Origin: a virus
UHGV virus genome: UHGV-0061378
DNA: 40,142 bases
Reading direction: 5' to 3' (one strand)
Shown: one piece after another, positions 3,336 through 6,356 of the stretch
Layout of the letters: each line of letters starts with the position of its first letter
Numbering within the stretch: position 1 is the stretch's first letter
Position numbers and translations under genes: made by a program
The notes under the pieces: model-generated
Told to the model about the DNA's origin: nothing
What the model saw: the letters and a program-made list of their open reading frames with translations, nothing else
Databases searched by the model: none

Positions 3336-4214
3336 TCAGTAGTTATGTACTGAAGGAGGTAATTCTTTATTCTTAAGTCTCATCCATGCGGAAAGATTCG
3401 TTGGTCCGTCTGGCTCATTAATATCAACATCTCGTGTGTGATTGATTAAAACGTCTCTCGCCATTCCGATAACATACGAGAACTCATGACCGTAGTCGTA
3501 GCATCTGCCGGAATAGTTCGATTGAATTTGTTTTAATGCCGGATACAGTTCGCGGAATAATGCCTGTGAACGGTTAGCATAATCCCATAGCCATACAAGG
3601 CTGTTTGCTTCTTTTTCAGAAAGCTCGTTTGCTTTCTTCTCTTGTTTGCCGACAAACTCGCCTTCAAGCACTACCCTGTGGATGTACTCTACGGCCAGCG
3701 GGATTTGTTCAATTGAAAGTTCATCAATGCTGTCAATACCAAAACGCTGATGAACCATATTGTATGCATCGTCATAGCGAAGTCCTTTCTTTCCTACCAG
3801 CATGTTTACTGCATCGCGTAGCGGCGTTCTTTCCTCAACAGTGGTTTTCTTGCCTTTCACATACTCGCCATGTTTGCGAATTGAAGGTAGAACTTCTGCT
3901 GTTACCCACTTGCGGAATTTGTGCGGGACCGAACCTTTATTGACAGCATCGCGGCAGCGCAGAACCAATGTATACATACCTGATTCGCTAACAATGCTTA
4001 GATTCTGCTCACCACCAAGGGTGTAACTTAAAGTTACTCCCTTTTCATCGTCATCAAGTGCAGTAAGCGCCTTGCGTGAGTTAGTCAGGGTTAAAGCATC
4101 ACAAACATCTTTTGCTACAAACCACGGCTCACCGCATTTGTTGATGACGCGGATTTCACTGTCGCCGAATTTGAAGATGGTGAAATCGTTTTGTGCCTTT
4201 GCTATACTTTTCAT
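3336..4214 (-). CDS. ant: Antirepressor with BRO-N type N-terminal domain
   Basis: Sits in the ant position of the immI region; start at internal ATG 4214 ([11 protein letters not shown]...) with AGGAAA SD, not the track start at 4280. Domain call from memory of BRO-N antirepressors. Confidence 0.75.
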
Positions 4215-4282
4215 GTCAATATTTCCTAATCCGATTTGTTGATACCGAAGCCCTGACTGTTCCCGCAGTTGGGGCTTCAACT

Positions 4283-4444
4283 TTACTCGCCAATGCGCCC
4301 TTCCTTCTTAAAGCTTTCCATTACTCTCTGATAAATCTCAGAGTTAACAGACCGACAATTCTCTTCCGCCACCTTGCGTACCAAATCCAATACTTCTTTA
4401 GGCCACCGCAAATTGAACTGCGGCATCTTGCTCATTCCTTTCAT
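4283..4444 (-). CDS. arc: Arc repressor (ribbon-helix-helix)
   Basis: 53 aa [53 protein letters not shown], near-identical to remembered P22 Arc; GAGGTG SD before ATG 4444. Confidence 0.93.
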
Positions 4445-4460
4445 ATTCACCTCACAATAT

Positions 4461-4477
4461 AGGTCCACCGTGGACCT
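4461..4477. promoter_or_regulatory. Mnt operator (17-bp palindrome AGGTCCACCGTGGACCT)
   Basis: Perfect palindrome in the arc/mnt divergent promoter region; matches the remembered P22 Omnt. Confidence 0.8.
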
Positions 4478-4486
4478 ATTGAGAAT

Positions 4487-4507
4487 ATAGTAGAGTGCTT
4501 CTATCAT
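4487..4507. promoter_or_regulatory. Arc operator (ATAGTAGAGTGCTTCTATCAT)
   Basis: Reverse complement ATGATAGAAGCACTCTACTAT matches the remembered P22 arc operator; lies between arc and mnt. Confidence 0.8.
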
Positions 4508-4534: not shown

Positions 4535-4786
4535 ATGGCTAGAGATGATCCGCACTTTAACTTCCGTATGCCTATGGAAGTAAGGGAGAAATTAAAATTC
4601 AGGGCGGAGGCGAATGGGAGATCAATGAACTCCGAGTTGTTACAAATCGTCCAAGATGCTCTATCAAAACCATCGCCTGTGACTGGATATCGCGACGATG
4701 CAGAACGACTCGCTGATGAGCAGTCCGAACTTGTTAAGAAGATGGTGTTTGATACGCTGAAGGATTTGTACAAAAAACCCACCTGA
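4535..4786 (+). CDS. mnt: Mnt repressor
   Basis: 83 aa MARDDPHFNFRMPMEVREKLKFRAEANGRSMNSELLQIVQDALSKPSP..., near-identical to remembered P22 Mnt. Confidence 0.93.
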   Translation: MARDDPHFNFRMPMEVREKLKFRAEANGRSMNSELLQIVQDALSKPSPVTGYRDDAERLADEQSELVKKMVFDTLKDLYKKPT

Positions 4787-4793
4787 CGGTGGG
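4778..4793. terminator. Bidirectional hairpin terminator between convergent mnt and the 337-aa gene
   Basis: CCCACC-TGAC-GGTGGG; the minus-strand reading is followed by TTTTTTG, the plus-strand reading by a weaker T-rich tail. Confidence 0.6.
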
Positions 4794-4799
4794 TTACTG

Positions 4800-5813
4800 T
4801 TACTTGTCTGAATCATCCAGTTCGTCTGTTTTCACATCCTCAAACCTTGGATGCAGGCGATTCATTTTTGCAATAAAATCTGAATAGTCGTTAGATAGCT
4901 TCATAATCGTAACGGTTGATGACAGATGCTCTCTTAATTTTTGATATCCAATATTTGGCGTCAGCCCCTGAAACAACTTTGTACCTTTTGAGGCCTTTAC
5001 GTTCTGCTTTTTAAGCTCCTCAAGGATGTTTGGTGCCAATCTCTTGTAGACGATATCATTTGTCAAAACGCCAAAATACTGAGGCCGGAAGCGGGGATTT
5101 TCCGGCGGGTATTCTAAGCCCCTTAACCTGAAAAGCTCTTCATAATAATCAGCAGGAAATGTTGTAATATAAGGTTGAATTTCCTTTGCGACAAAGGCCT
5201 CGAGTATTTTGGCGAGTGCATCTTTTTCTCTATCTCGCTGGTACCCCGTCGCTTCATCAACAAGCGCTATTATTCCGACTTTAGCTAATGAGCGCACCAG
5301 AATTTCAGCTTTCTTGGCTGTCTCTAACTGGTTTGGCCTGGTGATAGCGCCTGCCTCTCTTGCCTTTAAATAAACATCGCAGACAAGAGGTATTATGGAT
5401 GCGTCATAACCTTCCTGGACGGAGCCAGTAATCGTCTTGTATTTGACCTTATTGATCACATCCATAACATCTTGATTTATATATTTTTTAAGGTTTGCAG
5501 CATCCATAAAAGCGGGCATATTGATCACCCCCTCTTCTTGAGGTGCTCTACCCCCTCTTTGTGGTCGGCCAAATGCTTTAAAAACAGAAGCTTGTGATAT
5601 GATACGCCGTCCATTTTCGAGAACCGCGACATCTAATTCCGCATCACCGATCTTTAACTTTCCCTCATTCGCAGATACGGGCAATAAAGCTTTTTCTTTT
5701 TTTGCGGCAACAGCCTTTCTTGAGGATTCTTTTCTTTGCTCTGCTGTCATTTTTGCCGCGCGTGCCTTACCGCCTTTGGCCTTCCCACTAACATCATCAT
5801 TTTTCATGAGCAT
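4800..5813 (-). CDS. Hypothetical protein with Lys/Ala-rich N-terminal tail (possibly P63C-domain-like), in the sieA hotspot
   Basis: Long ORF; track start at 5867 is TTG, first ATG at 5813 (MLMKNDDVSGKAKGGKARAAK...). Domain assignment is an unverified recollection. Confidence 0.6.
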   Translation of the reverse strand: MLMKNDDVSGKAKGGKARAAKMTAEQRKESSRKAVAAKKEKALLPVSANEGKLKIGDAELDVAVLENGRRIISQASVFKAFGRPQRGGRAPQEEGVINMPAFMDAANLKKYINQDVMDVINKVKYKTITGSVQEGYDASIIPLVCDVYLKAREAGAITRPNQLETAKKAEILVRSLAKVGIIALVDEATGYQRDREKDALAKILEAFVAKEIQPYITTFPADYYEELFRLRGLEYPPENPRFRPQYFGVLTNDIVYKRLAPNILEELKKQNVKASKGTKLFQGLTPNIGYQKLREHLSSTVTIMKLSNDYSDFIAKMNRLHPRFEDVKTDELDDSDK

Positions 5814-5847
5814 ATCTCGTGTTGTGATTGATAAGTCAATCATACAC

Positions 5848-5865
5848 ATGCACGTTGTAACGTGC
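5848..5865. promoter_or_regulatory. 18-bp perfect palindrome TGCACGTTGTAACGTGCA plus extra half-site (candidate operator)
   Basis: Read directly in the divergent intergenic region between 4800..5813(-) and 5967..6356(+); a third TGCACGT copy lies at 5878..5884. Confidence 0.5.
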
Positions 5866-5966
5866 AATATTTAAATATGCACGTAAATTGCAAATCAGAT
5901 AATGAGGAGACTTTCTCCCCCTTGCACTGACATCATGGTATTCTGCTCAAAACTAAGGAGGTTGGT

Positions 5967-6356
5967 GTGAAGCCATTTCTTGCTGCTATGTTCTTATTCA
6001 TATCTTTTGGGGCTACAGCAGAGTGCTGGGTCGTTGGAGATATGCGCGGAATAAGCTATTCAGAACGAAATAATTTCCATCCGGAAGAAGATGGTTTTAG
6101 TGGAACATTCATCATTAAGACAAGCGGTGAAGATGCCAGCATCACATATTCTGGGACAGATGCGGGCGGCATGGCTTACAAAGCATTGTCTAAAAACTCC
6201 ATCATAGGAATCGGCGCGAATGGCGAAACTCAACGCGTTATCGACTCATGGGTAATACATCCTACTGGAACAGTTTTAATGTCAAAAACCATTTCCGGTT
6301 ATGGAAATATGGATTCAACCAAAGCTTTTGTTGGAAAAGTAAAAAGAAAATGTTAG
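5967..6356 (+). CDS. Small secreted/periplasmic protein with cleavable signal peptide (moron)
   Basis: GTG start 5 nt after a strong SD (TAAGGAGG); N-terminus MKPFLAAMFLFISFGATA-ECWVV looks like a Sec signal; opposite strand to the late operon; AT-rich by eye. Confidence 0.65.
   Translation: MKPFLAAMFLFISFGATAECWVVGDMRGISYSERNNFHPEEDGFSGTFIIKTSGEDASITYSGTDAGGMAYKALSKNSIIGIGANGETQRVIDSWVIHPTGTVLMSKTISGYGNMDSTKAFVGKVKRKC

Follow-up and report, generated by a model that had tools for sequence, protein, structure and literature searches.

An array of three half-sites over a predicted promoter accompanies a mobile P63C-domain gene in a P22-like phage and may be its self-operator

The window, meaning here the whole 40,142-nucleotide stretch that was analysed (UHGV virus genome UHGV-0061378), is the DNA of a P22-like phage or prophage; a matching arrangement is present as a chromosomal prophage in E. 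coli, for example T309.Ta3 (99.95% identity). The features that concern us are collected in Table 1. In the near-identical T309.Ta3 prophage the counterpart of the antirepressor gene (L167, 1486..2415) carries a split-gene or pseudogene annotation. The sequence ATAGGTCCACCGTGGACCTAT at 4459..4479, a near-perfect palindrome of 21 bp that separates arc from mnt, is what we take to be the P22-type Mnt operator, and on that assumption it shows the immI switch of this genome to be intact. Between mnt and the gene-16 homologue, in the slot where P22 carries sieA, lies a mobile module with a gene for a P63C-domain protein, followed by a divergent gene for a protein of 129 aa. The sites described in this work lie in the intergenic region between these two genes, 42-77 bp upstream of the P63C gene.

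Table 1. Features in and around the P63C module, in window coordinates.
Feature	Position	Strand	Remarks
Antirepressor gene (Bro-N + P22_AR_C)	3336..4280		314 aa, TTG start, intact
arc	4283..4507		
mnt	4535..4786		
Mobile module (promoter, operator, gene, terminator; promoter and operator putative)	4753..5956	-	99.5% identity over 1204 bp to 933W
Rho-independent terminator after the P63C gene	4770..4795	-	AACCCACC-GTCA-GGTGGGTT, then TTTTTG; hairpin 4776..4795
P63C-domain gene, 335 aa	4800..5807	-	ATG at 5807; Pfam PF10546, E=9e-24; phrog_2384, E=2e-146, function unknown
Codons 9-40, basic two-helix segment GKAKGGKARAAKMTAEQRKESSRKAVAAKKEK	5688..5783	-	Ser28 codon 5724..5726, candidate specificity residue
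Putative -10, TATGAT	5839..5844	-	4 bp downstream of O3; direct reading
Site O3, promoter-proximal	5849..5855		ACGTGCA in gene orientation; O2-O3 start to start 11 bp
Site O2	5860..5866		TGCACGT in gene (minus-strand) orientation; half of inverted repeat 5849..5866
Putative -35, TTGCAC	5862..5867	-	made by outer part of O2; direct reading; matches consensus 3/6
A/T-rich 11-bp spacer ATATTTAAATA	5867..5877		between O1 and O2; length kept at 10-11 bp, sequence drifts
Site O1, distal half-site	5878..5884		TGCACGT on plus strand, ACGTGCA in gene orientation
Short hairpin GGAGA-AAG-TCTCC, then T-rich tract	5906..5918	-	upstream of promoter; direct reading
129-aa gene	5967..6356	+	phrog_2651, function unknown; Emek homologue annotated as similar to Sf6 gene 38
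DNA-transfer (ejection) protein homologues	from 6381 onwards		

The P63C assignment is firm, the PF10546 match scoring 84.3 bits against a gathering cut-off of 26.1, and the Pfam domain spans residues 201-291 only. The N-termini of the homologues align from the Met at 5807, giving a protein of 335 aa. The RefSeq/PGAP version has 349 aa, with its ATG at 5847..5849 within the palindrome described below and 14 extra residues that are not conserved; since this start lies inside the palindrome, the annotated CDS runs across the putative -10 box and part of the candidate operator. The homologue P0011 (373 aa, loci L165/L166) is by appearance over-extended in the same way.

The module is found in very different genomes. 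In Shiga-toxin phages (933W, BP-4795 and others) it lies in the nin region between the DNA methylase gene and roi, co-oriented with the early operon, and the operator region is present in 49 of 5426 complete E. coli genomes, including O157:H7 Stx prophages. Other P63C homologues are flanked by myovirus baseplate genes (L161, L164), adjoin an antirepressor gene (L163) or follow downstream of a cI-like repressor gene (L165/L166), and the neighbouring genes differ completely between loci; Salmonella phage Emek has no P63C gene at the equivalent position. The terminator hairpin at the left end of the module separates the convergent mnt and P63C genes, with its T-run on the P63C side; a 27-bp match that includes this hairpin is annotated as a terminator at another junction in phage Emek and may represent a portable module boundary. 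At the other end, the short hairpin at 5906..5918 is possibly a weak insulator or terminator, and most relatives have a strong rho-independent terminator immediately upstream of O1. Because promoter region, gene and terminator together make a self-contained unit, we regard it as a moron. Morons are autonomous promoter-gene-terminator units inserted between conserved genes of lambdoid and HK97-like phages; like them, the 1.2-kb P63C unit combines a predicted promoter-like region with its own terminator and occupies different places in unrelated phages, but unlike morons as classically described it carries a conserved, putative self-operator that travels with the gene.

The right-hand edge of the module is a junction of two mosaic pieces, located at 5911..5956. 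From 5931 rightward the window matches Emek, and 5911..5960 matches several P22-like phages that are without the P63C gene, so that the sequence upstream of the 129-aa gene (from about 5911-5931 rightward) is, as judged from these matches, a different mosaic piece. The 45-bp stretch 5911..5956 is common to the P63C modules of Stx phages, which are without the 129-aa gene, and to P22-like phages that have the 129-aa gene without P63C. The nin-region copies thus seemingly keep a remnant of the sequence upstream of the 129-aa gene, in which an extended -10-like element, TGgTATTCT, lies at 5936..5944. The shared stretch suggests either that the module was transferred out of a P22-like immI setting or that recombination has a hot spot here.

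Three exact copies of TGCACGT are present at the locus, two of which form a dyad while the third lies at O1. The initial annotation described a perfect 18-bp palindrome at 5848..5865 with a third copy at 5878..5884. The third copy was correctly placed and the repeat is real, but its true position is 5849..5866, one base to the right, and it is not perfect: the 18-mer TGCACGTTGTAACGTGCA consists of two 8-bp arms, TGCACGTT and AACGTGCA, around a non-symmetric GT, so that 16 of 18 positions are symmetric. Written as 7-mers the dyad is TGCACGT-N4-ACGTGCA, and with its flanks the plus strand reads catacaca-TGCACGTT-GT-AACGTGCA-atatttaaata-TGCACGT-aaattgca. It is distinct, as had been claimed, from the palindrome that we assign to Mnt. 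In the window, inverted repeats with 8-bp arms and spacers of 0-6 number 9, against 4.9 +/- 2.8 in Markov-1 simulations, and TGCACGT occurs 4 times where 5.8 copies are expected. The palindrome and the number of heptamers are therefore both unremarkable in themselves, and since 8-bp-arm inverted repeats arise by chance in 40 kb the repeat alone is weak evidence of function. Three of the four heptamers are clustered within 36 bp, for which a Poisson estimate, good to the order of magnitude, gives ~1e-4. The search for further sites in the window that had been recommended found no second convergent pair: the one at 5849..5866 is the only TGCA[AC]G..C[GT]TGCA pair in all 40 kb.

Read in the direction of the P63C gene, the sites overlap a candidate sigma-70-like promoter, TTGCAC-17 bp-TATGAT, from which transcription is predicted to start near 5832. 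A scan for consensus promoters requiring at least 4/6 matches per hexamer reported none here, the candidate falling below this threshold. The dyad covers five bases of the putative -35 and most of the spacer. In relatives, TTGCAC precedes a spacer of 17 or 19 bp that leads to TATAAT or TATTCT; TATAAT stands at the aligned position in L164, L025, L140 and L033. The -10 box (TATGAT/TATAAT) follows O3 after 4-6 bp, and nothing other than TTGCAC of O2 resembles a -35. One arm, CTTGCA[A/T], falls on the -35 in distant clades, where another site often adjoins the -10. The A/T tract at 5867..5877 occupies the position of an UP element and might act as one.

The leader between this promoter region and the start codon contains elements of its own. 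A 12-nt block, TCACAACACGAG at 5816..5827 on the minus strand, is near-invariant from 100% to 55% protein identity while the rest of the leader diverges; it ends in a likely Shine-Dalgarno GAG, 8 nt before the ATG, and may act as a signal in translation or at the RNA level. Another palindrome of the 7-N4-7 form, TGATTGA-TAAG-TCAATCA at 5825..5842, lies over the putative -10 and the predicted start and is specific to the 933W-type module; its left arm would be untranscribed if the predicted start site holds, and relatives have a different inverted repeat, GCTCGT-N11-ACGAGC, in its place. In L057 and L067 a second long inverted repeat of the motif is found in the 5' leader, enclosing the RBS (for example TGCAAGCTC-N11-GAGCTTGCA followed by ATTATG), and these leader repeats could add translational control or a second operator.

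The strongest evidence comes from comparison among homologues. A protein search returned more than 7,600 P63C homologues at E<=1e-5, and 80 viral, 20 metagenomic and 6 individual loci (the last from four look-ups, made because the metagenome scan had given few close intermediates) were collected. In the enterobacterial clade the arrangement ACGTGCA-N10/11-TGCACGT-N4-ACGTGCA, in gene orientation, is present in every member, down to 70% protein identity. In a footprint alignment of eight enterobacterial sequences (seven loci and the window), comprising 24 half-sites, positions T1, G2, A4, C5 and G6 are invariant and C3 and T7 are kept in 21 of 24; the offset between O2 and O3 is 11 bp in 8/8, and that between O1 and O2 is 17-18 bp, likewise in 8/8. 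The dyad is retained in relatives with 90, 87, 83, 74, 72, 70, 55 and 52% protein identity, the last two being L033 and L071. By comparison the central 4 bp take six forms in 10 sequences (TACA, TGCA, TTCT, TATA, TTCA and AGAT). The earlier impression of an operator for a dimeric regulator is therefore borne out in part. Conserved half-sites, a free 4-bp centre and overlap with a candidate promoter are indeed operator-like, but the description as one dimeric site plus an extra half-site falls short of a three-site array (four sites in some relatives) whose distal member keeps a fixed offset of 17-18 bp.

Across the family the half-sites are enriched 7-15-fold overall upstream of P63C homologues. 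For a set of 48 non-redundant upstream regions, TGCACG/CGTGCA was observed 24 times against 3.5 expected, and TGCAAG/CTTGCA 61 times against 4.2 expected, in 30 loci; the extensions GCAAGC and CAAGCA are also enriched. A convergent TGCA[AC]G..C[GT]TGCA pair within 24 bp is found in 22 of the 48 upstream regions and in 1 of 1406 control windows drawn from the same loci (Fisher p=2e-34). The loci with sites range from 35 to 65% in GC. In distant clades the spacing between sites varies over 0-20 bp, which would be unusual for a rigid dimer and counts against the autoregulatory reading proposed below.

The protein encoded next to these sites offers a plausible reader. P63C takes its name from the C-terminus of p63 of Myxococcus phage Mx8. 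The domain reportedly came to light in a survey of how viral DNA-binding regulators (KilA-N, Bro-N) shuffle their domains. The parts of interest here, a proposed DNA-reading element (~9-40) and a central domain (~44-150), lie outside the Pfam domain of residues 201-291. No Pfam model matches either of them at E up to 1, no known DNA-binding domain was recognised in the protein by sequence (Pfam, NCBIfam, PADLOC, PDB), the PADLOC defence-system models gave no match to it, and the N-terminal segment has no match among solved structures. An AF2 model of the N-terminal 201 residues (mb46248d7e502; pLDDT 85) contains helices at 9-19 and 22-40, with a basic segment around residue 28 that reads GKAKGGKARAAKMTAEQRKE-S-SRKAVAAKK. 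In the structural comparison of the N-terminal part, the next-ranked matches are mostly winged-helix-like DNA binders (Dachshund 5.3, DdrC 5.3, Ski 5.1, Swi6 3.8), and a search of a viral structure library returned Mx8 p63 and, weakly, Bro/KilA/antirepressor proteins. The C-terminal half (residues ~180-335, window 4800..5250) has an invariant A-L-x-D-E-x-T-G-x-Q-x-x-R motif (D184, E185, T187, G188, Q190 and R193) and many invariant Pro, Phe and Tyr residues across 27-95 homologues; the AF2 model is poor there (pLDDT 45-65). This motif looks likelier to be an active or interaction site than part of a simple DNA-binding tail. No literature was found on P63C function, on 933W gene L0095 or on the motif.

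The idea that P63C reads the sites was put to a direct test, and the result favoured it. In the full-length alignment, residue 28 is the column that best separates loci with TGCACG from those with TGCAAG, the two classes showing no overlap. Ser28 goes with TGCACG or TGTACG sites in 11/11 loci; Ile28 goes with TGCAAG in 19/24 and never with TGCACG; Val28 is paired with (T)AGCAAG(CAT) in 4/4 and Asn28 with GCTAGCA in 3/5, while proteins with Arg28 have mostly TTAGCAT-type repeats. L080, with Gln, has TGCACG, and L067, with Arg, has TGCAAGCAT; both are exceptions. These counts cover about 60 loci and are without formal phylogenetic correction. When a tree is made from the remainder of the protein, members of the Ser/TGCACG class fall into at least three distinct clades: the enterobacterial one, a second formed by L071 with L026 next to an Ile protein, and a third represented by L148, which falls inside an Ile/TGCAAG clade and is up to 75% identical to TGCAAG-class proteins.

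It is proposed that the three half-sites are an operator array of the P63C promoter, most likely read by the P63C protein itself in negative autoregulation, a reading to which we assign a probability of roughly 0.6. It draws directly on what is observed: the conservation of the sites, their fixed spacing, their position over the candidate promoter, the mobility of the module and the covariation of residue and motif. The P63C product is favoured as the reader because its gene alone travels with the sites, in phages of unrelated circuits and at loci of 35-65% GC. From these observations we infer that P63C binds the sites, where exactly promoter and transcription start lie, and that the outcome is repression rather than activation. 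The layout in the direction of the gene would be ACGTGCA-N11-TGCACGT-N4-ACGTGCA, 4 bp, TATGAT, in which the -35 comes from the middle site, the 17-bp spacer is taken up by the inverted repeat and the distal site stands just upstream of the A/T-rich tract. The P63C protein would read the sites through its N-terminal basic helix (residues ~22-40), residue 28 apparently discriminating base five of the half-site. Protein bound over the -35, the spacer and the upstream tract would occlude RNA polymerase and so repress its own promoter. Such negative autoregulation would keep P63C at a low, steady level, probably also in the lysogen, and the terminators on both sides would insulate the unit, giving buffered expression in whichever phage receives it.

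The nearest comparison is the immI region of P22, in which the ribbon-helix-helix repressors Mnt and Arc act at palindromic operators overlapping Pant and Pmnt. The P63C array is found in the same neighbourhood and similarly places a palindromic operator over a sigma-70 promoter (putative here) with more than one repressor unit. It differs in that its sequence is unrelated, its candidate binder is not a ribbon-helix-helix protein, and it consists of a distal half-site plus a dyad as opposed to the single 17-21 bp operator of P22 immI.

Another possibility is that P63C, once bound to the array, activates the promoter of its gene, or does so at low occupancy and turns to repression at high occupancy, in the manner of MerR-type regulators or of lambda CI at PRM. 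Operators of the MerR family have a 7-4-7 dyad between -35 and -10 of promoters with a 19-20 bp spacer. The P63C array likewise has a 7-N4-7 dyad between -35 and -10, and L140, L164, L025 and L033 have a 19-bp spacer between TTGCAC and TATAAT with the dyad inside it, which is MerR-type geometry. In distant clades, moreover, the inverted repeat is centred near -41 with one arm forming the -35 and an extra site at -10/+1, which would also be compatible with activation. The spacers in the window and in L161, however, have the optimal length of 17 bp, the array includes an extra conserved upstream site, no MerR-family HTH was detected in the P63C protein or in 26 homologues, and sites over the -35, the spacer and the upstream tract form a classic repressor layout. 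Because the spacers measure 19 bp in some relatives activation keeps a share of our belief, and we consider it unlikely.

Rather less probable is that a host transcription factor, or another regulator of the phage, reads the sites in place of P63C. The P63C protein has no DNA-binding domain recognisable by sequence, and the half-site resembles that of NtrC. NtrC (NRI) enhancer sites have the form TGCACC-N5-GGTGCA, and sigma-54 promoters the form TGGCAC-N5-TTGCA; the half-sites described here also start with TGCAC, and TTGCA motifs recur, but the hexamers are separated by N6 in place of N5 and have another sixth base. Even with 3 mismatches allowed, the NtrC pattern misses the palindrome, and the sole sigma-54-like match (5877..5892), which is without the GG, only reaches chance level; the NtrC/sigma-54 reading was rejected. 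A host regulon was likewise discarded. The suggestion that further sites might exist in host genomes was followed by a search for the exact dyad in 596 Gb of genomes, which gave 58 matches and thus no excess over the ~139 predicted by a uniform-composition estimate. Among eight of these matches that were read, four are in Proteus at one shared position in conserved, coding-like sequence; L140, the P63C locus of Enterobacterales bacterium CwR94, is also among the genome matches. That the sites accompany the gene across unrelated regulatory circuits and across loci of such different GC, and that the half-site shifts with residue 28 of P63C in at least three independent clades, further argues against another reader.

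The sites might also form a bidirectional operator that controls the divergent 129-aa gene in addition to P63C. The array is 83-118 bp from the start codon of that gene in the same intergenic region, and the initial annotation placed the repeat in a divergent promoter region between two cargo genes. Shared control of both genes finds no support, the sites belonging to the P63C module only. The 129-aa gene and its upstream sequence occur in Emek, where that region was read, without the repeat; other P22-like phages match the window only from 5911-5912 rightward, beyond the repeat; and Stx phages carry the array without the 129-aa gene. Dual control thus appears improbable. A terminal repeat of a mobile element was considered as well and rejected: the half-site is absent from the opposite end of the module, whose boundary lies well beyond the sites.

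Very improbable, in our view, is a nucleic-acid hairpin (an RNA 5' stem-loop, a terminator or insulator, or a DNA cruciform) in place of a protein site. The RNA fold has -9.3 kcal/mol (z=-2.2), and the perfect arms of distant relatives extend up to 15 bp with outer parts that are not conserved between loci, which could mean a structural element. Yet 5 of the 8 pairs never vary in ten relatives, five cells of the pairing comparison are unpaired by one-sided changes such as ACGTACA (L162, L025) or TGCACGA (L023, L164), and only a single double change is seen, with 101 of 500 shuffles as good. As the changes are mostly one-sided and break pairing, it is the sequence and not the pairing that is conserved. 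The unpaired third half-site is conserved equally well, one or both arms would lie upstream of the transcription start given the predicted promoter, and neither an Rfam match nor a T-run after the stem was found. A chance palindrome without function, to which the roughly five 8-bp-arm inverted repeats expected in the window and the heptamer count, which is not raised, would lend themselves, can practically be dismissed, on the strength of the comparison among homologues and not of the window statistics, because sequence, spacing and position are conserved down to 52% identity and the family-wide enrichment is of the order given above.

If the self-operator reading is extended to the whole family, P63C proteins would be previously unrecognised sequence-specific DNA binders, each with its own operator, and the C-terminal part with its invariant D-E-x-T-G-x-Q would be an effector that is autorepressed to a safe level. 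We put this forward tentatively, as a possibility that we rate below even odds. A helix with the consensus [LM]-[TS]-P-E-x-R-x-x-X-A-x-K-A-A would read the 8-mer TGCA[A/C]G(C/T)(A/T), with specificity set by one residue (Ser, Ile, Val or Asn at position 28). The effector might be, for example, a prophage-encoded exclusion or defence function, located where P22-like phages have their sieA slot.

For the window itself the significance is modest, as it would gain one more operator of a well-known kind and no new regulatory principle; a practical consequence is that the RefSeq CDS start inside the candidate operator is a database annotation to correct. More broadly, an entire family without a known function appears to be equipped with an operator of its own and a simple recognition code. 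The P63C family counts thousands of copies among phages and prophages, in Proteobacteria and more widely, and it occurs in medically relevant Shiga-toxin phages (933W, BP-4795). A self-operator and a residue that tracks it would provide the first testable function for the family and would make the operators predictable for any member. They would also indicate that an accessory phage gene can take its regulatory switch along as it passes between very different phages, which may help to explain how such a gene is safely expressed after transfer.
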